Both the position numbers and the translations under genes were made by a program. The notes below the pieces were generated by a model. That model ran no database searches. It worked only from the letters and a program-made list of their open reading frames with translations, and was not told the origin of the DNA. DNA of 34,823 bases. Origin: a virus. The stretch is from the UHGV virus genome UHGV-0108273; one strand, 5' to 3'. Below, in pieces: positions 12,252 through 28,223 of the stretch; the stretch's first letter is position 1; every line of letters starts with the position of its first letter.

Positions 12252-15200
12252 TTATATCCTCCTTTCTATCACGGCTGCTCTTACAATTTCTTTAACAGCT
12301 TCTGTAATATTGCTTCCATCATCATAAGTAAGACCGTTAATGTTATATGAAACACCACCAACATTACCTAAGTCTTTACGAAGTCTGTTTATTGCTGAAA
12401 CAACATCATCCATAGATCCATTTTGAATTCTTTCACCCATCATAGAATTTATGGTGTTTAGTCTTGACATTACTCCCAATGTAGGAGTTCCATTCAACAT
12501 GCCGTTAATTGCACTAGCTCCAGATTTAATATCAGACAAATCAAGGACTGGTCTTATTGTCGGCTGAGTGTTGATATCTCCGTCAAGAAGACTCGAAATT
12601 CTCGACATTGCTGTTTGAGTACTGTTAACAGCGTTATCGGACATTCTAGAAATAGATTGTTTCACTAATCCTCCGAACATACCGATACCCTTAGCAAATC
12701 CAATAGGAACATATGAACCTATTTTCATGAACACCCTTGAAGGTGAATGAATAGCAAGATTAGCCCTAGCTGCTGCCGATGCTGCCGCTGCCATTGAAGC
12801 TGCTGCATTTGCCGCCGACCAAATGTTCGCTTGAATACCTGCTACAAATCCGCTAGCTACATAAGATCCAGAACTATAAAAGCTTGAATAATATCCTCTA
12901 GTAGAAGATACTGCTGAAGACAATATCGACGTTGTTGTGTTCACAACACTTGAAGCTCTACTTCGCATACCGTTTACGAATTGTGTCATTAAAGCAACGC
13001 CATTAGTTCCAAATACGGATCTTTTACTGCTAATAGCTTTAAGCATCGAGTTGATAATATTGGTAGCTGTTGATGTTACCAATGCTTGTTTTGATTTCAA
13101 ACCATTAGAGAAAGATGTAATTAAGTTCGATCCAATGTTCGACATCTTAGACGTTGAACCACTAAATGATTTAGTAATACTATTCATAGAAGTTTGACCC
13201 AAAGTAGATACAGCAGTTTTAAACGATGCTACGCCGCTTGTGTTAAGTCCGGCCAAACTACTAATAAAATTCTTAATCTTAGTAGCCGCTGTTATAGAGC
13301 TAGATATTGATCCGACATTTATACCTGCAACAGAATCAGAGTAACTTTTTAAAGTACTTCCGATAGTTCCTATCTTAAAGTTTGAAACTCCACTAGAATC
13401 CAAACTTGATAGTCCCTGAATAAAAGTCTTTAATCTATTTGCCGCAGTAACAGAAGATGTAACTTTACCAGAGTCCACATTTTCAACCGACTTAGAGTAG
13501 CTCTTCAAAGTAGTTCCAATAGATCCTATTTTGAAGTTACTAACACCACTACTATCCAATCCCGTAAGACTTGATACAAAATTTCTAAGTCTATTTGCTG
13601 ATGATATGGATGATGAGACTATACCCGGGTCCATATCTTTAACGGAGTTTCCGTAGTCCTGCATAGCCTTACCTATGGAATTAATCTTGAAGTTTTCAAT
13701 ACCGCTTGTATCAAGACCCACCAGACTAGCTATTAAACTCTTAAGTCTTAAAGCTACTGAGACTGCTGTGTTTACTTTAGCGATATCGATATCGGCTACA
13801 GATTCTCCGAACTTACCTATAGCCTGTCCAATATTAACCAAATGACCGTCTCCGGCTCCAACACCTGCAAAGCTACTAACACCACTTGCATCGAGATCGG
13901 CTAAAGCGGTAATCAGGTTTTTAATCCTATAAGCGGCTGTTATGGCGGTGTTTATACCATCAGAGTTTATGTTTGCAGCGTCTGTTGAGAATGTAGTCAT
14001 GGCCGAGCTGAATTTTTCGACGTATTTTGAGAATTCCTCAAGATTCATCTTACCGTCAAACCAGCCTTCTTCTGGAAGGGCTTCTTGAAGAGCTATAATA
14101 GCGCTACCTGCATTCGTTACGGATGTTACGACTGCTTCCGATATACCGTCCTCTCCCATTCCGGTTTTAAGTTTGCCCATAGCTGTAGCAAATTGACCTA
14201 TGTTTTCGCCAAAAGTTCCTAAGTCATCTTTTCCGGTAAACCAGTCGATTACTCCTCCCATATTCTCAAGAGAAGATTGTAATCCAGCAAGTTTAGTAGC
14301 CGCATTTATAATAGAAGTAATTGAATCATCATCTATTTTTGTATCTCCTAAATCGGCAAAAGCAGTTTTCATCGATCCCATAAAGCTAGCGACACTAGAC
14401 CCAAAAGTCCCTAAGTCGTCCCTTCCAGTGAACCAGTCAACCACTCCTCCTATATTTTCAAGCGATGACTGCAAGCCTGATAATTTAGTAGCTGCGTCGA
14501 TGATTATGCCGATTGCTTCGGTATTTATTTTGACTCCGTCTAAGCTTGAAAATGCTTTTGTCATAGATCCTATAAATAGACCTATATTTACACCAAATGT
14601 GCCGAGGTCGTCTCTACCTTTAAACCAGCTTATTACTCCGCCTATTGGTTCAAGGCTAGATTGAAGTTTACTCAGTTCAGCAGCTCCAGTAATGATCGAT
14701 GTTAAAGCTTCCGTATTGAAGGATACTCCGTCAAGACCTAGAAAAGCATTCTTCATTGAGAATATAAATTGACCGACGTTAGTTCCGAAAGTCGCGAGGT
14801 CATCCCTGCCAGAGAACCAATCCATAACACCGCCTATAGGCTCCAATGACGATTGTAATTCGCTAAGTTTCGTTGCTACATTTATCACAGCGCCCATTGC
14901 CGCCTCGTCTATTGTGATTCCAGCAGAAGCTTGCGATATCGCTTTCATAGCATTGAAGAACGCAACACCATCGGTCTCAAACTTCTCCATAGAAGTACCA
15001 CCGAGAGTGAATATGTCAGCGATAGAAGTACCAACTGTTGTAAATCCTATCTCTGCCATAGCACTCATTAAATCGGACACGCCATCGAAAGATCCTGATT
15101 TAATACCACTAGCATTTTCGCTTGCTATAGCTAGTTTGTCCATGAAATCAGCAATATTTTGACCTATTTCCGGTAAACTTCCGGTAATACCTTCTCCGAT

Positions 15201-18200
15201 TCCTCCTATGAATGCTCCGATTCCTTTGCCGATTGCGTTTCCTATTTTTCCTAATAATCCACCGCCAGCTTCAACAAGGGACGAAAAACCTGGAATTTTA
15301 GATAACCCACCGATTGCTGCCAGAAGTACTGCTATCTCAGCTATTACAGCACCAACGGCTAATACTCCGGTCATTGCTGGGCCGGCTAAAGCTCCAGCTC
15401 CGGCGAATACTTTCATCAATATTCCGATTACTCCGAATGCACCTATGCCTTTTAGCATAGTATCCATATCTAAATTGCCTATCGAATCGACGATACCTTT
15501 GACAACTTGTCCGACAAAATTCATTATTGCCGATATTAATTCTGGAGTATGCTCGGCAAGACTATTAATAACTCCGATTATAAAACCGAGAAGTGAATCG
15601 ACAATCTGTGGTGCATACTGTTCTAATGCGTCTAAAACGCCTAAGAGCAGTTTCAGAAAACTTTCAGCCAATTGAGGTGCATATTCTCCTATAACTTTTG
15701 CGATTTCGACGATACCTCGACCTATTACTTCAGCAATTTGTGGAATCAATCCTAAAATACCGGTGATTATAACTGTTATTGATGCGACAAGCGCTGTGGC
15801 ACCAGCAGTTCCAGCAGTAGCAAGAGCTGTGAATCCAGCTGATAGAGCAAGTATACCAACGCCAATTCCAGCTATAGCTACAGCAAATATAGCCATCGCA
15901 GCGGATAAACCAAGTATTGCCGGAGTGAGTGGACTCAGAAGAGCTCCAGCTACTCCTATTACTACAAAGGCTCCAGCAAGAGTTACGAGACCTTTTACTA
16001 TGCTCTCCCAACTCATAGATCCTAATGATTTCAATACAGGTGTTAAAATTGCTAATCCAGCAGCTGCAACAACTAATGCGGCAGACCCCTTAAGAGATCC
16101 ACTCATGGCTTTTAATCCAATAGATAGCTCGACCAAAGCTATTCCAAGTACAACGAGTCCTTTTCCTATACTCTCCCAGCTCATCGATCCTAATGATTTT
16201 AAGACTGGAGTTAATATAGCAAGTGCTGACGCCATCAAAAGCATTTGACCGCCGAACTTAGCGATAGATCCACTACCCTTGCTCATAATTTTAGAAGCTA
16301 ACACCAGCATTGTAACAATACCTAATATTCCAGCTCCACCTTTAGCTAATTCGTTCCAACTCATAGAACCCAAACTCTTACCAACAGCAGCCAAAATGCC
16401 AACCGCAGCTGACATGATAAGCATCTGTCCAGCAAATTTGGTTATAGACTTACTTTCAGTATTCATGAGTTTGGCAGCACCAACTAATATAGCGACTATT
16501 CCTAATATTCCGGCCCCACCTTTGGCTAATTCTTCCCAACTCATTGAACTGAGAATTTTAGCGACTCCAGATAACGCTGCTATTGCTGCTGATAATATAA
16601 GCATCTGTCCAGCAAATTTGGTTATAGACTTACTTTCGGTATTCATAAGTTTAGCAGCCGCGACGAGTATAGCTACCATTCCACCAATACCAACGAGGCC
16701 TTTTGCTACACCGTTCCAATCAAGTCCAGCTATAATTTTCATAGCGCCTGCTAATATAAGAATAGCTGCTCCGAGTCCAATCATCTGAACAGTTCTAGCT
16801 ATACCTGACAAACTTGATACTATACCAGATAAAGGTTTGACACTTTTGCTGTTTATTTTTTCAAGCACTGCTAATGCAGATATCAACTCTACAAACAAAC
16901 CGCCTATTGCGCCTAAAGAACTTCCGAGTTTATCCTCGTCTATTCCAGATATGACAAAAAGAGCCGCTGCCAGTATTCCAATAGCACCCGCTATTTTTAG
17001 CAATGTTCCGGCTTTAAGATTCTGTTGCCATGATTCCAAACTTCCCTTAACGCCATCAAGTATTTTTTTAACGTTATCTAAGAAACTTATTTTTTCGAAT
17101 GGATCAGATAATCCTTTAATAAAGTTTCTTATGGCTAGTAATATTCCAGCAAACAATCCGCTGTTTAATACTTCGAAAATATCGCCTTTACCAAAGGCAT
17201 CGGCTATCATATTACCTATATCGGAAAAAGCTTCTCCGATGGCCGCGCCAACCGACTTTATAGTGTTCCATAGACCGGAAAAGAAGCCAAGAAAACCTTG
17301 AAGTGTAGGAGAAATCTTAAAACTCTCAATAAGTGAGCGTCCAAACTCTGCTATTTTTGAAATCCCGTTGCTAAGAAATCCAACAATTTTATCAACTGCG
17401 TCGCCAAACAGATTTCCTTCTACTATGGAGTCTCTCACATTCGAGATAAAATCTCCAAAAGAACTCGTTGCATCCAGTATTCCTCCACCAAGTCCGGTGA
17501 AGTTTCCAATAATATCTAGAGCGCCTTTTCCAACAGCTTTAAAAGCCTCTATAACAATATCGATAGCGGAAAAGATTCCTTTAAATGTAGATTTTATTTT
17601 AGATGCAGCGCCTTCACTTACTTTTAAAGTATCAGTGAAAGCTTTGAATCTATCAATCATACTTACTACTTGGTCGACTGTAGTAGGTGGAAATATCTCT
17701 CTAAAAGCTTCTTTTATCGGTTTTATTATATCTCCAAGGAATTTGAATATATTTTTCAAACCCTCTATAATTTTTTCTCTACCGCCAAGCTCGGTTATTC
17801 CATCGATAAGACCATCTATGTTGTCTTTTAATTTATTCGTAGATTCGTTTGCTTCATTTAGCGCTTTTAATGTAGCGTCATCAACGATACCTGTTATTTC
17901 TAAATCGTTAGCTTCCTGAAAAGCTTTAATAGCTGACTCTGTGGCACTTCCGAAAATTCCATCAGCACCAGAATCGCCAATATCATAGTTAAGGCTTTGT
18001 AATGCTTTTTGTACTTTTGTTACGTCGTCTCCTGTATTACCTTTCGATAAACCGGCTTCGACTCCACTTAAATCTACAAGTTCGCCTTTTAATCCGCTAA
18101 CAGCTTCTTTTAAAATATCAGAAGATATGGCACCAGATTGAAAAGCTTTTTCTAGAGAACCATATTTTTTTATGATCTCGTCCATATTAACGCCATGGTC

Positions 18201-19415
18201 CTCAGCAATCGATCTAACTTTTTCCTCAAAAGTATCGGTTTCTACACCAGCTTCATTTATTTTTTTTACAAGCTTATCCCAGTTAGAAGACATCGCGCCT
18301 TCCAATAATTCGTTACGAGATTTCGCTGATGATTCAACCATCTTTCCAATGGTATCTGAAATTCCAGTGAACAATTCTTTGGAGTCTTCAAAATCACCGA
18401 CAAGTATTCTCCAAGTTTGACCCCATCCAGATTGGAGAGATTCTTTTACCGTATCTATCAGCTGTGTGAATGTTTTTACTTTTGAAGCAGCGTCTTCAGC
18501 GTCCTTCGCTAAAGCCATAATATCGTTTGCTTGAGATTCGCTATAACCTTGGGCAATAAGATCGGCCTTACTATATGCGCCAGACAATTGGTTAAGAGTT
18601 TCAGTTAATACCTCGGTCGTTAACCATTCACCTTTTGTTAGGCTTTCTCTAAAGCTGCCATATGTATCAATAGCTTGTTTAGCGCCTGTTCCCAAAAGTT
18701 CAGACGTTCTAACAAGTGCGTCCTGAAATACCTTACCACCCATACCGGCATTAACAACTGAGTTCCAGTCCATAAGACTAACTTTACCTGCCGCCAATGC
18801 CTGAGAAAGCTGATACATCGCAGTAGATGCCTGTTGAGAAGTTGATCCAGAAACTGCGGCCAAGTTCGCAATACCTTTAATAGCATTAACTGAGGTATCA
18901 AGTTTTACACCAGCTGCTGTAAACGTACCGATATTACGAGTCATTTCCGTAAAATTGTAAATCGTCTTATCGGCATATGTATTTAGCTCATCTAAAGCCT
19001 TATTTACAATATCAACATTAGTGCCTTCCTGCCTTGTATTGGATAGAATTGTCTGAATAGCACCAATCTGAGTTTCGTATTCTTGGAAACCGCTTTTAAC
19101 CGGATCTATAGTTAATGCTGATATCATACGTTTACCAGTGTTAACAGCCTGGTTAGTGATGTTTGCTAAAGCAGTTACACCAGCGACCTGTAGTGCTGAA
19201 AATTTAGCCTGAACTGTCTCTATACCACTGCTCATTCCTGCAAAGCTAACACCTTTAGCAGCCTTACCGACATTCTCCAACCCTTTGGAGGCACCAGATA
19301 GATTTAACTTTTGTTTGAGCTTATCGAGAGTTGACATACTGGTTGCGACTCCGCTCTCAAACTGCTTATTGTCGAACCGCATCTCCAAGACTCTGTTGTC
19401 AATAGTCGTACTCAT
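12252..19415 (-). CDS. Tail tape measure protein, 2387 aa, with a peptidoglycan-binding (PG_binding_1-like) domain and three families of internal tandem repeats
   Basis: N-terminal region typical of tape measure proteins; 'GDDVTKVQKALQSLNYDIGDSGADGIFGSATESAIKAFQEANDLEITGIVDDATLKALNEA' matches the PG_binding_1 pattern; long hydrophobic and Gly/Ala/Ser-rich repeat blocks; start overlaps the upstream gene stop (ATGA). Confidence 0.88.
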   Translation of the reverse strand: MSTTIDNRVLEMRFDNKQFESGVATSMSTLDKLKQKLNLSGASKGLENVGKAAKGVSFAGMSSGIETVQAKFSALQVAGVTALANITNQAVNTGKRMISALTIDPVKSGFQEYETQIGAIQTILSNTRQEGTNVDIVNKALDELNTYADKTIYNFTEMTRNIGTFTAAGVKLDTSVNAIKGIANLAAVSGSTSQQASTAMYQLSQALAAGKVSLMDWNSVVNAGMGGKVFQDALVRTSELLGTGAKQAIDTYGSFRESLTKGEWLTTEVLTETLNQLSGAYSKADLIAQGYSESQANDIMALAKDAEDAASKVKTFTQLIDTVKESLQSGWGQTWRILVGDFEDSKELFTGISDTIGKMVESSAKSRNELLEGAMSSNWDKLVKKINEAGVETDTFEEKVRSIAEDHGVNMDEIIKKYGSLEKAFQSGAISSDILKEAVSGLKGELVDLSGVEAGLSKGNTGDDVTKVQKALQSLNYDIGDSGADGIFGSATESAIKAFQEANDLEITGIVDDATLKALNEANESTNKLKDNIDGLIDGITELGGREKIIEGLKNIFKFLGDIIKPIKEAFREIFPPTTVDQVVSMIDRFKAFTDTLKVSEGAASKIKSTFKGIFSAIDIVIEAFKAVGKGALDIIGNFTGLGGGILDATSSFGDFISNVRDSIVEGNLFGDAVDKIVGFLSNGISKIAEFGRSLIESFKISPTLQGFLGFFSGLWNTIKSVGAAIGEAFSDIGNMIADAFGKGDIFEVLNSGLFAGILLAIRNFIKGLSDPFEKISFLDNVKKILDGVKGSLESWQQNLKAGTLLKIAGAIGILAAALFVISGIDEDKLGSSLGAIGGLFVELISALAVLEKINSKSVKPLSGIVSSLSGIARTVQMIGLGAAILILAGAMKIIAGLDWNGVAKGLVGIGGMVAILVAAAKLMNTESKSITKFAGQMLILSAAIAALSGVAKILSSMSWEELAKGGAGILGIVAILVGAAKLMNTESKSITKFAGQMLIMSAAVGILAAVGKSLGSMSWNELAKGGAGILGIVTMLVLASKIMSKGSGSIAKFGGQMLLMASALAILTPVLKSLGSMSWESIGKGLVVLGIALVELSIGLKAMSGSLKGSAALVVAAAGLAILTPVLKSLGSMSWESIVKGLVTLAGAFVVIGVAGALLSPLTPAILGLSAAMAIFAVAIAGIGVGILALSAGFTALATAGTAGATALVASITVIITGILGLIPQIAEVIGRGIVEIAKVIGEYAPQLAESFLKLLLGVLDALEQYAPQIVDSLLGFIIGVINSLAEHTPELISAIMNFVGQVVKGIVDSIGNLDMDTMLKGIGAFGVIGILMKVFAGAGALAGPAMTGVLAVGAVIAEIAVLLAAIGGLSKIPGFSSLVEAGGGLLGKIGNAIGKGIGAFIGGIGEGITGSLPEIGQNIADFMDKLAIASENASGIKSGSFDGVSDLMSAMAEIGFTTVGTSIADIFTLGGTSMEKFETDGVAFFNAMKAISQASAGITIDEAAMGAVINVATKLSELQSSLEPIGGVMDWFSGRDDLATFGTNVGQFIFSMKNAFLGLDGVSFNTEALTSIITGAAELSKLQSSLEPIGGVISWFKGRDDLGTFGVNIGLFIGSMTKAFSSLDGVKINTEAIGIIIDAATKLSGLQSSLENIGGVVDWFTGRDDLGTFGSSVASFMGSMKTAFADLGDTKIDDDSITSIINAATKLAGLQSSLENMGGVIDWFTGKDDLGTFGENIGQFATAMGKLKTGMGEDGISEAVVTSVTNAGSAIIALQEALPEEGWFDGKMNLEEFSKYVEKFSSAMTTFSTDAANINSDGINTAITAAYRIKNLITALADLDASGVSSFAGVGAGDGHLVNIGQAIGKFGESVADIDIAKVNTAVSVALRLKSLIASLVGLDTSGIENFKINSIGKAMQDYGNSVKDMDPGIVSSSISSANRLRNFVSSLTGLDSSGVSNFKIGSIGTTLKSYSKSVENVDSGKVTSSVTAANRLKTFIQGLSSLDSSGVSNFKIGTIGSTLKSYSDSVAGINVGSISSSITAATKIKNFISSLAGLNTSGVASFKTAVSTLGQTSMNSITKSFSGSTSKMSNIGSNLITSFSNGLKSKQALVTSTATNIINSMLKAISSKRSVFGTNGVALMTQFVNGMRSRASSVVNTTTSILSSAVSSTRGYYSSFYSSGSYVASGFVAGIQANIWSAANAAASMAAAASAAARANLAIHSPSRVFMKIGSYVPIGFAKGIGMFGGLVKQSISRMSDNAVNSTQTAMSRISSLLDGDINTQPTIRPVLDLSDIKSGASAINGMLNGTPTLGVMSRLNTINSMMGERIQNGSMDDVVSAINRLRKDLGNVGGVSYNINGLTYDDGSNITEAVKEIVRAAVIERRI
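13250..16800 (-). repeat. Intragenic tandem repeats within the tape measure gene (three repeat families, about 45-62 codons each)
   Basis: Protein repeats 'LSSLDSSGVSNFKIGSIG..LKSYS.SV...', 'LQSSLE.IGGV.DWF.GRDDLGTFG...' and 'AKLMNTESKSITKFAGQMLI.SAA...LSSMSW.ELAKGGAGILGIV' recur 4-6 times. Corresponding DNA stretches recur (e.g. 'ctcccaactcatagatcctaatgattt' near 16000 and 16180). These generate the spurious plus-strand ORFs at 14200..17301. Confidence 0.8.
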
Positions 19416-19804: not shown

Positions 19805-21373
19805 TTACAGTAGCTCGTTAACTCGATCCTGAATTTTCTGAATCATGTTGTGATCGTATCCAGCTTTTGCGAGGGCATTAATTCGTGCATCTCCATTACC
19901 GTATTTTCCGGCAATGACATCACGGGCTACATTATCAATCACTATCTGATTTACTTTCTTCTGCACAGTGTCTGGATTATAACCAGCTTTCTTGAGAGCA
20001 GACACACGAGCATCACCATTACCCCATTTTCCAGCTAAAACCTCTTTAGCTACTTCATCGATAGATTTAGTAGGTTTTGCAGGAGCTTTAAGTAGTTCAT
20101 TCACTTTCTTCTGTACAGTGTCTGGATTATAACCAGCTTTCTTGAGAGCAGACACACGAGCATCACCATTACCCCATTTACCGGCGATTACTTCTTTAGC
20201 AATTTCATCGATAGATTTGGTCGGTTTTGGCGTAGATGTAGGTTTAGATGTTGGTGCTGGTGTGGAAGAACTTTTCGCATATTTTGGTCTAGCAAAACCA
20301 CGAATCATACCCCAGCCAACCGGAATGGTACGTCTTGCTACTGCTTCTCCTCTGTTACCTTCAATCGCTGTGATTTGTCCGTTTGAAACAGATTCCACAT
20401 ACCCGATATGATCAGAATATCCGTCGTTTGGCTGAGTCTTATCATCCCAGTTATAAACAATTACATCACCAGGTTTCGGAGTAATGGTGCCGTCCTCGAC
20501 CCAAATGCCTTTCTGCTTAAAAATCTTAATATGTTCCTCACAACCAACTTCTGTACCGATGAGATCGACTGCTCCGGATTTGATAGCTGCTGCTGATACT
20601 GTACAATCACACCATTCATCATTAGGTTTAATAGCGTATCCGCGAGCCAAAGGTTTGTGAGAATTATAGATGTTAAGAATCTCAATATATTTACCGTTAG
20701 CTTCAGAATAACCGAGCCAACTTCTCATAACATTAAGAACGTCCTGTGCTGTTACACCCAATTCCGTATCCTCCTGTTTTCCGTAAAAATAGTTCATGTC
20801 GACTTTACCTTTAATACCGCCTACAGTTCCGGAACTCGTATACTGATGAACCAAACAACCGTAATCTGCTTTTCCGTTATAATCAGCGAGCCAGAATTTG
20901 TACTGTTTAATCAGATCATGATTATACCAATTTCGATAGTAGTCGATATTTGCGTAGATTCCAGCTTTGTATCCCTGAGATTCTACGTACTCACAAAAGA
21001 TTCTTGTAAAGTTATTACATTCATTTTTACCAAGTCTCACACCTTTTGCAGCTGCTTTCTTGACTGTGTCATATTCGAAATCTGCGAAGATGATTGTGTT
21101 TTTATCAAGACCAGCTTTTCTAACAACATCAACACAGAATTTTGCTTCGTCAAGTGCGCCCTGTTCGTTTAAGGCATAAATAAAATGGTAAGTTCCTATA
21201 ATCGGAATCTTGTTGTTTTTACACCCATTGACATACTCATAGAATTTTGAATCTACTGTCTTCCTGTAAGAAGATCTAAGAATCGCGAACTCTATTCCGG
21301 AGGACTTGACTTTAGAAAAATCTACATCTCCCTGCCAATAGCTGATATCAATTCCTTTCTTCACAATCATCAT
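19805..21373 (-). CDS. Modular peptidoglycan hydrolase: GH25 muramidase + CHAP-like peptidase + three CW_7 (Cpl-7-type) cell-wall-binding repeats
   Basis: N-terminus 'GIDISYWQGDVDF...FAILRSSY...IGTYHF' fits the GH25 signature. Central Cys...His...E/N segment ('WCDCTVSAA...SDHIGYVESVSNGQITAIEGN') is CHAP-like. Three C-terminal repeats 'KSIDE.AKEV.AGKWGNGDAR.SALKKAGYNPDTVQKKVN' match CW_7. No signal peptide seen. Confidence 0.85.
   Translation of the reverse strand: MMIVKKGIDISYWQGDVDFSKVKSSGIEFAILRSSYRKTVDSKFYEYVNGCKNNKIPIIGTYHFIYALNEQGALDEAKFCVDVVRKAGLDKNTIIFADFEYDTVKKAAAKGVRLGKNECNNFTRIFCEYVESQGYKAGIYANIDYYRNWYNHDLIKQYKFWLADYNGKADYGCLVHQYTSSGTVGGIKGKVDMNYFYGKQEDTELGVTAQDVLNVMRSWLGYSEANGKYIEILNIYNSHKPLARGYAIKPNDEWCDCTVSAAAIKSGAVDLIGTEVGCEEHIKIFKQKGIWVEDGTITPKPGDVIVYNWDDKTQPNDGYSDHIGYVESVSNGQITAIEGNRGEAVARRTIPVGWGMIRGFARPKYAKSSSTPAPTSKPTSTPKPTKSIDEIAKEVIAGKWGNGDARVSALKKAGYNPDTVQKKVNELLKAPAKPTKSIDEVAKEVLAGKWGNGDARVSALKKAGYNPDTVQKKVNQIVIDNVARDVIAGKYGNGDARINALAKAGYDHNMIQKIQDRVNELL
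19840..20230 (-). repeat. CW_7 repeat array at DNA level; two copies nearly identical (about 19953..20036 and 20103..20186, period 150 bp)
   Basis: 'ctttcttctg[c/t]acagtgtctggattataaccagctttcttgagagcagacacacgagcatcaccattaccccattt' occurs twice with 1-2 mismatches; the third copy is more diverged. Confidence 0.8.
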
Positions 21374-23789: not shown

Positions 23790-25727
23790 TTAGGCAGTTT
23801 CTTTCACGAATTCAAGAGCTACTGCGGAATACGGTTTAACAAGTGTACCGGAGCAACGTGTCTCCATAAGATACTTCTGCTTGTTGTAATCGATATCGAA
23901 ATCATCGAAGAAGTTGATTTCTCCACCCTTATCTGTACCTACGTTGTAATCTTTAAGATTTACATAGATACCAGCAAGCTCATATGTCTTATTTTCATCG
24001 TCTGTTCTTGTAAGACCTTCCATTACCGGAACCGGAACGATTTCTCTTACGCGAAGAGATGCTGCAAGTTTCTGTACGCTATCATAGATAACACGTCCGT
24101 TTGTATCTTCAATGAGCAAGCAATCTGTAAGCATATCCTCAGACATGAACATATCAGGGTTGCCAGATCCTTTATAATTCTTTCTGGATTTGATGCAAGC
24201 TTTGATGAATGCCTTAGCTTTCTCTTCAGCAGTAGCGGAATCGCTTACATTGATAGCTGCTTTAACTGTGAAAAGATCTTCCATCTTCCAGATAGGTCTG
24301 ATGCAGTCCTCATTGATTTTATCGTTAGCCTCTTCAACCGGATCTCTTCCATCACCGATAAGGAATGCGCGAGCAAGTTCCTCATCAAGCATCATACGAA
24401 CTTCTCTCTTCAGCCATGGAAGAATATCGAAATCTGTAATATCAAGCATGTCATCGCGATCTAATGCCTGTTTCTTGTATACAGTTGTTGGATTTGTTAC
24501 ACGTTTGAGAAGCTTAAATACTTCTTCAATTTTAAGTTTGCCTTTCTGGTATCCCTTTGCTCTAGCCTGTGCTGCTGTGATGTCAGCAAAGATAGTTTTG
24601 ATACGGGAGAACGGTGTGTGATGTACTCCGCCAAGTACTTTTGATACCCAATCGTCATTACGTTTGATAAATTCCGGTTCATTGTTAAGATTCTTTGCAT
24701 CCGGGAATAAGATGTCAATGTCTGTGATACCATGAGCAAGCACTGCCTCTTTAAGAGAACCTGAGCGTTTCGCATCTTCGAAAATCGCAGTCATCTCGGA
24801 GTGTGTAAGCACATCATCTGCCATAGGGGTTTCATTGTCGAATACGTTGTGTTTCATATTTTTGTTTCCTCCTTCATTTTCATCATCTTCTTCGGTTTCA
24901 ACACCAGCATCTTCTAATGCCTGTCCGATCATAGCGTACACAACAGTTTTCTGTTTCTCAGAAAGAGTGTTGAATACATCAGCTACAGTTTCTTCTTTGT
25001 TTTCTCCCTTTGTTTCTTCCTCGGCATGTTTTACTTCTTCCTCAGAATGGGTTACTTCTTCTTTGTCTGGTTTATCATCGTTTTCTTCTTTGATACCAGC
25101 ATCTTCTAATGCCTGTCCGATCATAGCGTACACAACAGTTTTCTGTTTTTCAGAAAGAGTGTTGAATACATCAGCTACAGTTTCGTCCTTATTTTCTTCG
25201 GCATTATGTTTTTTGGTTTCTTCTGCCATTTTTTCTTCTCCTTTCTCAGAAGTATCTGCGTGGAACAATGACTCCACATTTTCGATATATTCGCCTGAGC
25301 TGATATATCCCTCTTCATAAGAATCTTCGCCATGCATCATGACAGACTCTATTACTGCGCCTGGATTAGCACCAGCTAAAACCAAACTAAGCTCACGAAT
25401 GACTCCGTGAACTACATTACTTCCCTGCTGTTTAAGTCTGTTGGCATATATGGAAAATCTATTCACATCACCATGCTGAACCAGCAATTTAGCATTCTGC
25501 CCTGATTCCGTATCGTTAAATGTGCAATATGCATACACACCTTCGTCCCTGTTTTCCAGCAAGGCATGACCGAGCACTTCATCTACGCTATTATGCTGAT
25601 GATTCCAAACTAACGGTACAGTTTCACCATCGCACTCTTTGAATGCATCTTTCATGATGACTCTACCGTCCGCACACAGCATGTCAGCTTTAGTAGCCCA
25701 GCCAGAACAATCATATGACTTAGCCAT
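23790..25727 (-). CDS. Fused prohead protease - acidic linker - HK97-fold major capsid protein (645 aa)
   Basis: N-terminal about 150 aa resembles prohead proteases (..VPLVWNHQHNSVDEVLGHA..); central acidic region with a duplicated 30-aa unit; C-terminal about 350 aa of capsid-protein size and composition; preceded by GGAGGCAGAAAATCAAAATGG. Confidence 0.7.
   Translation of the reverse strand: MAKSYDCSGWATKADMLCADGRVIMKDAFKECDGETVPLVWNHQHNSVDEVLGHALLENRDEGVYAYCTFNDTESGQNAKLLVQHGDVNRFSIYANRLKQQGSNVVHGVIRELSLVLAGANPGAVIESVMMHGEDSYEEGYISSGEYIENVESLFHADTSEKGEEKMAEETKKHNAEENKDETVADVFNTLSEKQKTVVYAMIGQALEDAGIKEENDDKPDKEEVTHSEEEVKHAEEETKGENKEETVADVFNTLSEKQKTVVYAMIGQALEDAGVETEEDDENEGGNKNMKHNVFDNETPMADDVLTHSEMTAIFEDAKRSGSLKEAVLAHGITDIDILFPDAKNLNNEPEFIKRNDDWVSKVLGGVHHTPFSRIKTIFADITAAQARAKGYQKGKLKIEEVFKLLKRVTNPTTVYKKQALDRDDMLDITDFDILPWLKREVRMMLDEELARAFLIGDGRDPVEEANDKINEDCIRPIWKMEDLFTVKAAINVSDSATAEEKAKAFIKACIKSRKNYKGSGNPDMFMSEDMLTDCLLIEDTNGRVIYDSVQKLAASLRVREIVPVPVMEGLTRTDDENKTYELAGIYVNLKDYNVGTDKGGEINFFDDFDIDYNKQKYLMETRCSGTLVKPYSAVALEFVKETA
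24903..25184 (-). repeat. Near-perfect direct duplication of about 90 bp (copies at about 24903..24992 and 25095..25184, period 192 bp) inside the capsid gene linker
   Basis: The two copies differ at about 1 nt; each encodes 'ETVADVFNTLSEKQKTVVYAMIGQALEDAG' in the minus-strand frame, embedded in E/D/K-rich sequence. Confidence 0.85.
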
Positions 25728-25766
25728 TTTGATTTTCTGCCTCCTTTTTAATTAACTTAAACTGCA

Positions 25767-27362: not shown

Positions 27363-27959
27363 CTATGGTGTTGATGGATTAAGACTTTCAGCGATTTTAG
27401 CGTCTATGTATGAATGTATTTCAGCTATATCCGCTTCCGTCCAATAATCAGTACCTCTGACAGGTGTCTTCCCATCAGTACCAGGATCTCCTTTTGGTCC
27501 AGCATCACCAGTATCACCTTTTGGTCCCTGAACACCCTGTTCACCTTGAGGTCCGGTTAATCCTGTATCTCCCTTTGGACCCTGAATACCTTGTTCACCT
27601 TGAGGTCCAGTAGCTCCGGTATCACCTTTTGGTCCCTGGATACCCTGTTCACCTTTCGGGCCTGTAGCTCCGGTATCACCTTTCGGACCTTTAAGACTAG
27701 CTAACCATTCAGTCTCGCTTCCTTCGAAACCAGTAGAAAGCGCTACTTGATAAGCAGAATCACCTGGATCTCCTTTTTCACCAGGAGGGCCAGGAGTGGT
27801 TGAACCAGTTCCTCCGTTAGTAATGAGCTCGCATAATTCCCAAAGCAATTCTTCAGCTCTAGACTGAGGTCTCGGCAATCCTTCAGTACCTTTCTGTAAG
27901 ATAGTATTTTTCATATATTCTTCAAATCTACTATCCGGTATGTATGTTTCATCGATCAT
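27363..27959 (-). CDS. Collagen-like triple-helix repeat protein (198 aa)
   Basis: About 25 uninterrupted Gly-X-Y triplets (GPKGDTGATGPKGEQGIQGPKGDTGATGPQGEQG...) flanked by non-collagen N- and C-terminal segments; located between the terminase and portal genes. Confidence 0.75.
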   Translation of the reverse strand: MIDETYIPDSRFEEYMKNTILQKGTEGLPRPQSRAEELLWELCELITNGGTGSTTPGPPGEKGDPGDSAYQVALSTGFEGSETEWLASLKGPKGDTGATGPKGEQGIQGPKGDTGATGPQGEQGIQGPKGDTGLTGPQGEQGVQGPKGDTGDAGPKGDPGTDGKTPVRGTDYWTEADIAEIHSYIDAKIAESLNPSTP

Positions 27960-27977: not shown

Positions 27978-28223
27978 TTAGAGTTCAATTCCTTCAATGG
28001 CTGCTCTTACCTCAAGACATCTGAGATACTCGCCCATGTAACGTTTCTGCTCCTGAAGTTTTGCTATCGGGCAAGTTGGTTTGAAGTCGAGAACTCCTGC
28101 TTCATGTTTTACAAGCATCTGATGTAATTTGTCATATCGAATCTTTGTCTGATAATACTCAGCTTTAAAACGATCTTTATAATCGGAACTATTCATAAGT
28201 TCAATCGTGTCTTTTAACTCCAT
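27978..28223 (-). CDS. Hypothetical small protein (81 aa)
   Basis: ORF with AAGGAGGTAAATTCAAAATGG initiation context; no recognisable motif. Confidence 0.45.
   Translation of the reverse strand: MELKDTIELMNSSDYKDRFKAEYYQTKIRYDKLHQMLVKHEAGVLDFKPTCPIAKLQEQKRYMGEYLRCLEVRAAIEGIEL

Follow-up and report, generated by a model that had tools for sequence, protein, structure and literature searches.

How many proteins does a phage make from a single reading frame that joins a prohead protease to a capsid protein, and why does the linker between the two carry the same 90-bp unit twice in almost identical letters? This question is raised by an open reading frame (ORF) of 645 residues on the minus strand of the UHGV virus genome UHGV-0108273, a stretch of 34,823 nucleotides that was analyzed as a whole and is called the window hereafter. 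The explanation that we consider likely is that of a nested head-assembly gene made up of three modules, in which the repeat units are old and gene-converted and in which translation also starts inside the frame. It is carried by two sets of comparisons: a ribosome-binding signal and start codon retained at the capsid boundary throughout the family, and repeat copies that are alike within genomes and divergent between them.

Module organization and probable internal starts

The main features of the gene, in window coordinates, are the following.

23790..25727, minus strand: full ORF of 645 residues, with protease, linker carrying two repeat modules, and HK97-fold capsid protein
25740..25747, minus strand: Shine-Dalgarno (SD) sequence of the main start, AAAGGAGG, followed by a 12-nt spacer and the ATG at 25725..25727; duplex energy -11.6 kcal/mol
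25332..25727, minus strand: HK97-type (S78) prohead protease domain, about residues 1-132, from Pfam, TIGR01543 and the AlphaFold2 (AF2) model
25227..25244, minus strand: candidate internal start A, AAAGGAG with an 8-nt spacer and ATG (M167); -8.7 kcal/mol, opening a 479-residue linker-capsid frame
24855..24875, minus strand: internal start B, GAAGGAGG with a 10-nt spacer and ATG (M291); duplex energy -11.7 kcal/mol
23790..24857, minus strand: nested in-frame capsid ORF of 355 residues, beginning MKHNVFDNE, with HK97 fold from TIGR01554 and Foldseek

The protein had been described, in an initial annotation made from the letters alone, as a protease-like N-terminal part and a capsid-sized C-terminal part joined by an acidic linker, and this layout is borne out by profile searches of both halves and by structural comparison. 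Pfam PF04586 (Peptidase_S78) covers residues 17-94 above its cut-off (27.7 bits versus 21), TIGR01543 covers residues 24-129 over profile positions 22-138 of 142, with 27.9 bits, below its cut-off of 59, and residues 7-117 adopt a beta-rich fold in the AF2 model with a predicted local distance difference test score (pLDDT) of about 75. H54 and S114, candidates for the catalytic residues, do not vary in the protein alignment (A2), and the domain terminates at the family-invariant H132, in the context MMHGED. The linker (residues 133-290) is strongly acidic, with 48 Asp and Glu versus 16 Lys and Arg. At the C-terminal end, Pfam PF05065 (Phage_capsid) covers residues 422-639 at its cut-off (24.2 bits), and the NCBIfam model major_cap_HK97 (TIGR01554) scores 34.8-37.0 bits versus a cut-off of 27.5, the value of 37.0 being that of the nested 355-residue ORF. 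The AF2 model of the full protein has a mean pLDDT of 56.6 and a predicted template modelling score of 0.40; its C-terminal half is confident and the capsid fold is recognizable. Foldseek with this model retrieves the capsid protein of a gene transfer agent (6tb9, E 2.5e-7), that of T5 (8zvi) and that of HK97 (2gp1), with E values from 2.5e-7 to 1e-5. A profile search of PDB sequences with alignment A2 gave no meaningful match (best E 0.42), so the protein has no solved relative there.

Sequence comparison clearly places the gene in the known "major capsid and protease fusion" family, which occurs in 1706-like phages and in an actinophage supercluster. The whole protein corresponds to PHROG 3270 (E 5e-224), and 244 phage records were aligned to it end to end by tblastn, 243 of them covering at least 80% of the query; they come from phages of Gordonia, Arthrobacter, Streptomyces, Rhodococcus, Curtobacterium, Microbacterium, Lactococcus (1706-like) and Faecalibacterium, and human-faecal contigs match as well. 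The family comprises more than 8000 clusters at 90% identity (E<=1e-10) and 1008 at 50%, the latter counted on the capsid part. A scan of genome contigs for homologues returned just two distant matches, in a Thermoplasmata and an Ignavibacteriaceae metagenome-assembled genome, with 42-43% identity. The query shares with the other members full-length homology (35-63% identity), the same order of modules, the synteny of portal, small gene, fusion gene, head-tail connector and major tail protein, a conserved 30-residue unit and the start motif MKHNVF. It differs by belonging to a gut-metagenome lineage in which two units are homogenized to 89/90 nt. The capsid-protease fusion has been noted as an unusual feature (PMC5513430; bioRxiv 10.1101/2020.01.10.891226), and its carriers form a described supercluster of Actinobacteria and Firmicutes phages (10.1101/842583). 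In published descriptions, the gene is treated as a single fusion product, and no mention of the repeat module, its copy-number variation, its homogenization or the internal starts was found in the searchable literature.

The case for an internal start is clearest at the capsid boundary, where the DNA reads GAAGGAGG-AAACAAAAAT-ATG (24875..24855). In alignment A2, G286, G287 and M291 are invariant within the hypervariable acidic tail of the linker and are followed by a conserved KHNVF. The codons were compared in 89 genes, namely 80 IMG/VR loci, 8 phage records and the query, with 35-66% identity. The M291 column holds ATG in 75, GTG in 10 and TTG in 2, and the two exceptions have an ATG or GTG at most 3 codons away, each preceded by its own GGAGG. 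When a strong SD is defined by a duplex energy of <= -8.5 kcal/mol, 89% of the genes carry one before this site, versus 3.4% of linker codon positions and 4% of other in-frame ATGs. Its strength and spacing match those of the real starts in the window, such as the main start of the gene and the starts of the portal and major tail protein genes.

These signals have to be weighed against the possibility that only the 645-residue polyprotein is made, the internal SD and ATG being a relic of the fusion, a translational pause or a by-product of the acidic composition. Indeed, the public records inspected all annotate a single coding sequence (CDS), the composition of the linker favours GA-rich strings, and no experimental report of a short product was found in the searchable literature. 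A relic, however, would not retain a start codon at the site in 89/89 genes, down to 35% protein identity, and it would not restrict valine at the M291 column to GTG (10/10 versus a background of 27%), leucine to TTG (2/2 versus 22%) and the upstream glycines largely to GGA (86 of 97, or 89%, versus 26%). Moreover, the GGAGG or GAGG string persists while the residues that it encodes vary (EGG, EEED, DLED, DMED, KGD). We thus regard a gene limited to the polyprotein as unlikely.

Two rare relatives in which the gene is split precisely here argue in the same direction, since they must use the start equivalent to M291. In the first (L096:1912-4065), a protease gene of 357 residues (46% identical, E 1e-42) with five divergent units ends at a TAA, after which AAGGAG-N9-ATG opens a capsid gene of 354 residues beginning MKVNAF. 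In the second (L097:2342-4467), a gene of 220 residues encoding the protease and one unit (50% identical, E 3e-70) overlaps the capsid gene by ATGA with a change of frame, and the capsid protein begins MKHNVFD. In three further loci (L095, L098, L100), the capsid calls likewise begin at MKHNVF, and the upstream sequence is too short to distinguish split from fused genes. The comparisons point to M291 as a genuine start of the capsid protein. A free 355-residue capsid protein is probably produced by the fused genes in addition to the 645-residue product, because both start and SD are conserved at M291 and the split relatives begin their capsid gene there. The term "fusion gene" of the initial annotation is therefore correct for the joining of the modules in one frame and incomplete as a description, because conserved internal translation starts lie at the module boundaries; it also overlooked the known family.

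A second candidate start, M167, is located just before the first unit. An SD followed by ATG or GTG is found at this position in 39-47 of the 89 genes, 39 of them at or below the threshold given above, with a density of 16.4 versus 0.77 per 1000 codons elsewhere (about 21-fold; Fisher p 4e-16 and 4e-31). Initiation there would probably give a linker-capsid product of 479 residues.

Such an arrangement has known counterparts. In lambda C/Nu3 and in herpesvirus UL26/UL26.5, a protease and a more abundant assembly protein are produced from one gene by means of an in-frame internal start. The conserved in-frame SD and start inside the longer ORF would be the analogous elements here, with the ribosome-binding site and the start codon both present and the synthesis of the short product suggested by the split relatives. 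The systems differ in that the common C-terminal part is the scaffold in lambda and herpesviruses, whereas it is the capsid protein here, or possibly scaffold plus capsid when translated from site A. No sequence homology to lambda C or Nu3 was detected.

Concerted evolution of the repeat copies

The linker carries the duplication as three consecutive segments.

25095..25184, minus strand: repeat module copy 1, residues 182-211, ETVADVFNTLSEKQKTVVYAMIGQALEDAG; AF2 helices at 184-188 and 193-209
24993..25094, minus strand: acidic inter-module spacer of 102 nt, residues 212-245, with orthologous counterparts in two relatives (P0005 and P0008)
24903..24992, minus strand: repeat module copy 2, residues 246-275, the same 30 residues as copy 1; AF2 helices at 248-252 and 257-273

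The 90-bp duplication with about one mismatch that had been reported inside the linker is confirmed: the copies agree at 89/90 nt, the sole difference is a synonymous GAA/GAG change, and both translate to ETVADVFNTLSEKQKTVVYAMIGQALEDAG. A match of this length with one mismatch cannot be due to chance. The distance from start to start is 192 nt, or 64 codons, so the copies are in frame, and the identity ends at most 3 nt beyond the unit on either side, the flanks and the 102-nt spacer being unduplicated. The spacer also carries a 21-nt tandem repeat of its own (25014..25061, 2.3 copies), encoding EEVTHSE and EEVKHAE, which would be a duplication of a putative [LIV]-x-H-[SA]-E cleavage motif.

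Assembly can go wrong at short repeats, and either the duplication or its near-identity might thus be an artefact in the window. We consider this practically negligible, because two copies are present at the same positions in 108 of the 120 closest homologues, which come from independent assemblies; one copy is present in the other 12. In addition, the copies have distinct flanks and stay in frame.

The near-identity had been attributed to a very recent duplication or to concerted evolution, and the comparison with relatives separates the two. A recent segmental duplication of a single unit would account for the 89/90 identity and the sharp borders, and the one-copy alleles found in the same lineage indicate that the copy number does change. 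Against it, the identity is confined to the 90-nt unit. The query, P0005 and P0008 have orthologous spacers and flanks, as do relatives whose copies are diverged, and the alignment suggests that the spacer is older than the divergence of the query, P0005 and P0008. Two copies are moreover the norm of the clade and bear position-specific signatures, the ancestral ones being kept in other lineages. In the 120 closest homologues, the two copies share from 14/30 to 30/30 residues. Copy 1 takes two forms: an ancestral one, "KA/M24", in 44 proteins (on average, 20.5/30 residues in common with copy 2) and one resembling copy 2, "TV/Q24", in 52 (on average, 28.1/30). The two-copy state is ancestral in the clade, old and widespread, and a very recent duplication is accordingly highly unlikely.

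Concerted evolution is the part of the earlier claim that stands, because the copies are alike within genomes and divergent between them while the spacer is orthologous. Within the query and within P0005, the copies match at 89/90 nt, with one synonymous codon difference in each case; between these genomes, the match falls to 79-81/90, a difference of about 11% that consists of synonymous changes alone. Homogeneity within the genome is thus also found in a relative about 10% diverged, which has synonymous variants of its own. In the remaining two- and three-copy genes of the 89-gene set, 2-11 codons differ synonymously from copy to copy. On these alignments, the locus is a case of concerted evolution of intragenic repeats, with greater identity within than between genomes and orthologous flanks. 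We conclude that gene conversion homogenized old paralogues independently in at least two lineages.

The linker is also subject to larger exchanges. Outside the linker, P0008 (L089) departs from the window by no more than 0-2 differences per 60 nt; within about 24920..25250, it has another copy 1 and another spacer in place of those of the window, and a copy 2 that differs by 12%, which indicates mosaic exchange and makes the linker an exchangeable segment. One-copy alleles are found in several sub-lineages. The clearest (P0002; L090, contig ERZ1755778 NODE_1017) is 100% identical over 1746 nt except for an exact deletion of 192 nt, from repeat to repeat. These alleles may be real products of recombination or collapses of short-read assembly.

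The repeat unit and its putative role in head assembly

The unit is a module of the whole family. Its in-frame arrangement and its conservation in the family as protein sequence point to a coding element and not to a tRNA, RNA or regulatory one. It is found in every relative examined, with the consensus [KE]-T-[VI]-x-[DE]-[VI]-F-x-[ST]-[LM]-x-E-x-Q-K-x-V-V-Y-x-[ML]-[IV]-G-x-A-L-E, and is strongly conserved across phyla within a hypervariable linker. Of the 89 genes, 62 carry a single unit, 26 carry two and 1 carries three. The comparison of copy number in related phages that the initial annotation had proposed gives a range of 1-5: one unit in Lactococcus phages 1706 and P078, FP_oengus, Arthrobacter phage GoCrazy and Streptomyces phage Rima, two in Gordonia phage Schwartz33 and in ReqiPoco6, and five in gp28 of Arthrobacter phage Qui (MN183282.1; L092:2981-5413), a protein of 810 residues from a 113.7-kb phage. 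Copies 1 and 5 of this protein, which is annotated solely as capsid maturation protease, are identical at 26/30 positions. Copy number rises with the length of the genome or contig (Spearman rho 0.60, p 2e-4, with kinship ignored and many contigs incomplete), the median length being 56 kb for one copy, 65 kb for two (up to 90 kb) and 114 kb for five.

No instance of the unit was found outside the fusion family by tblastn against 50,697 phage records, and its function therefore cannot be borrowed from another context. Searched alone in Pfam, PHROG and NCBIfam, the 30-residue unit has no significant family, with sub-threshold matches only to DUF6547, DUF6844, phrog_572 and IreB. In the AF2 model it consists of a short helix, a turn and a helix of 17 residues, with pLDDT 55-65; the model is too poor for judging whether the units dock on the capsid domain.

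We favour, as a proposal that fits the evidence, a putative role of the unit as the scaffold or capsid-targeting element of the family, because of the position of the unit, its predicted helices, the lack of any other scaffold gene and the relation of copy number to genome length. The unit lies N-terminal to the capsid fold, at the C-terminal side of the protease. In the head module of the window, from the portal to the head-tail genes, there is no separate capsid or scaffold gene: upstream of the fusion gene lie genes for the terminase large subunit, a crAss001_48-like protein, a collagen-like protein, the portal and a small ORF, and downstream those for a DUF7253 protein, the major tail protein and the tail assembly chaperone. 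The protease proteins of the split relatives end within 4-7 residues of their last or sole unit. The capsid-targeting tails of prohead proteases and the coat-binding domains of scaffolds lie at the C-terminus as well, as in HK97 gp4 and P22 gp8. The earlier suggestion that the unit could act as a scaffold or delta-domain-like element thus agrees, as a hypothesis, with the position between protease and capsid, the variable copy number and the C-terminal location in split relatives.

The unit might instead be a regulatory or inhibitory peptide of the protease, a peptide interacting with the portal or DNA, or a neutral spacer. It has no detectable homology to known scaffolding proteins in Pfam, PHROG or the PDB profile search, its modelled structure is of low confidence, and its net charge of about -3 sets it apart from the coat-binding helix-turn-helix of the P22 scaffold, which is basic. 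Against these roles stand the strong conservation across phyla in a hypervariable linker, the extreme C-terminal location on the protease of split relatives, a head module with no other scaffold gene and a copy number rising with genome size. Taken together, a function other than scaffolding appears rather unlikely to us, and the scaffold role is retained below.

Comparison with known scaffolds refines this proposal. The structure predicted for the unit, with a short helix and a longer one joined by a turn, resembles the C-terminal helix-turn-helix of P22 gp8, phi29 gp7 and 80alpha gp46, and the unit is likewise located at the extreme C-terminus of the protease-scaffold protein of the split relatives. 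Unlike those domains, it is acidic and repeated, is without detectable sequence similarity to them and is a putative capsid binder. The HK97 system, with gp4 and the delta domain of gp5, shares the S78 protease, the HK97 fold and a helical acidic N-terminal segment presumably removed by the protease, and gp5 with its delta domain resembles the putative 479-residue product. It differs in having one coiled-coil of about 100 residues instead of 1-5 short units between putative cleavage sites, and in that the protease of the query is in the same reading frame as the capsid protein.

The candidate cleavage sites of the query are as follows.

24801..24803, minus strand: H309, in VLTH↓SE, the best candidate for the maturation cleavage
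25332..25334, minus strand: H132, in a further [LIV]-x-H-[SAG]-[DE] motif
25260..25262, minus strand: H156, same motif
25047..25049, minus strand: H227, same motif, in the spacer
25026..25028, minus strand: H234, same motif, in the spacer

The motif has a density of 17.4 per 1000 residues in the linkers versus 4.5 elsewhere. Its histidines are kept among the 89 relatives in 100% (H132), 89% (H156) and 97% (H309). It also recurs behind each unit in L096 and in Qui; in L096, each unit is trailed by L-x-H-[AE]-D. The most tentative of our proposals is that this recurring motif marks the maturation cleavage sites, which would place the mature N-terminus of the capsid protein near S310.

These elements can be combined in the following scheme. 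Module 1 (about residues 1-132) is the S78 prohead protease, module 2 (about residues 133-290) the acidic linker with two 30-residue, helix-turn-helix-like units that would act in scaffolding or capsid targeting, and module 3 (residues 291-645) the HK97-fold major capsid protein. From one frame, the phage would make the protease-linker-capsid protein of 645 residues, probably the linker-capsid protein of 479 residues, and the free capsid protein of 355 residues. These products would co-assemble through their common capsid domain, and protease and units would thereby be placed inside the procapsid. The protease would then cut at the [LIV]-x-H↓[SA]-[DE] sites at 132, 156, 227, 234 and 309, which would free it together with the linker fragments, each unit included, and leave a mature capsid protein beginning near S310. 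At the DNA level, gene conversion has replaced copy 1 with copy-2-type sequence and maintains the identity in the query lineage, and the repeats can mediate the precise 192-nt deletion that gives a one-copy allele.

Several observations weigh against this scheme. The short nested products are deduced from comparative sequence, and about half of the family lacks site A. A sequencing error could explain the frame change of L097. GAA and GGA codons abound in the linker, and SD-like strings arise more easily in such a context, although the measured background in linkers is only 3.4%. The overall confidence of the AF2 model is low (56.6, and 55-65 for the units), which makes the helix-turn-helix shape tentative, and the unit has no sequence match to solved structures or known scaffold families in Pfam or in the PDB profile search. 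The trend of copy number with genome size is without phylogenetic correction and includes many incomplete contigs. Finally, collapse during short-read assembly could account for the one-copy alleles; the coverage of the P0002 contig is 4.4.

Capsid subunits are required by the hundred for one shell and proteases usually in far smaller numbers, a problem of stoichiometry to which a conserved internal start would offer a simple and testable answer. The 30-residue unit is also a candidate for a minimal scaffold element, and its valency is open to experimental change. A wider reading, which we hold with more doubt than conviction, is that the "fusions" of the family are in general three-in-one nested genes, with protease-scaffold-capsid, scaffold-capsid and bare capsid protein made in fixed ratios. 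The protease and a multivalent scaffold would in this case enter the procapsid covalently bound to some of the shell subunits, and the 30-residue unit would represent a new modular type of scaffold, with its copies (1-5) set by recombination between units, homogenized by gene conversion and scaling with capsid size. Real nested starts would change the annotation of such genes to nested CDSs, in a family of about 1000 clusters at 50% identity that includes SEA-PHAGES actinophages, dairy Lactococcus phages and abundant gut phages, and would bear on capsid-protease fusions noted as an oddity in hundreds of sequenced phages. Within an essential structural gene, the repeat is in itself a compact natural case of concerted evolution and of a changing number of copies. 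As first described, the locus is an ordinary member of its family with interesting concerted evolution, and the proposed nested starts would be of specialist interest.

Origin of the window and other genes

The closest homologues often sit on contigs of 86-98 kb, whereas cultured members of the family have genomes of 54-62 kb, which suggests that the window derives from a siphovirus of about 90-98 kb. A host among gut Firmicutes is only a guess, made from the human-faecal relatives and the strong use of SD sequences.

Three other genes of the window, all on the minus strand, have distinctive domain contents. A protein of 522 residues (19805..21373) combines a GH25 muramidase, a CHAP domain and three CW_7 repeats and is endolysin-like; its gene sits inside the tail module, between the tail-chaperone region and the tape measure gene of 2387 residues (12252..19415). 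The tape measure protein of L096 likewise carries CW_7. Between the terminase and portal genes, a protein of 198 residues (27363..27959) is made of collagen-like G-x-y repeats (Pfam Collagen, E 1.9e-11) and holds an internal near-duplicate, GPKGDTGATGP[KQ]GEQGIQ. Adjoining the gene of the terminase large subunit, a protein of 81 residues (27978..28223) matches Pfam PF21825 (crAss001_48 related, labelled Sequestin) with an E value of 2.4e-20.

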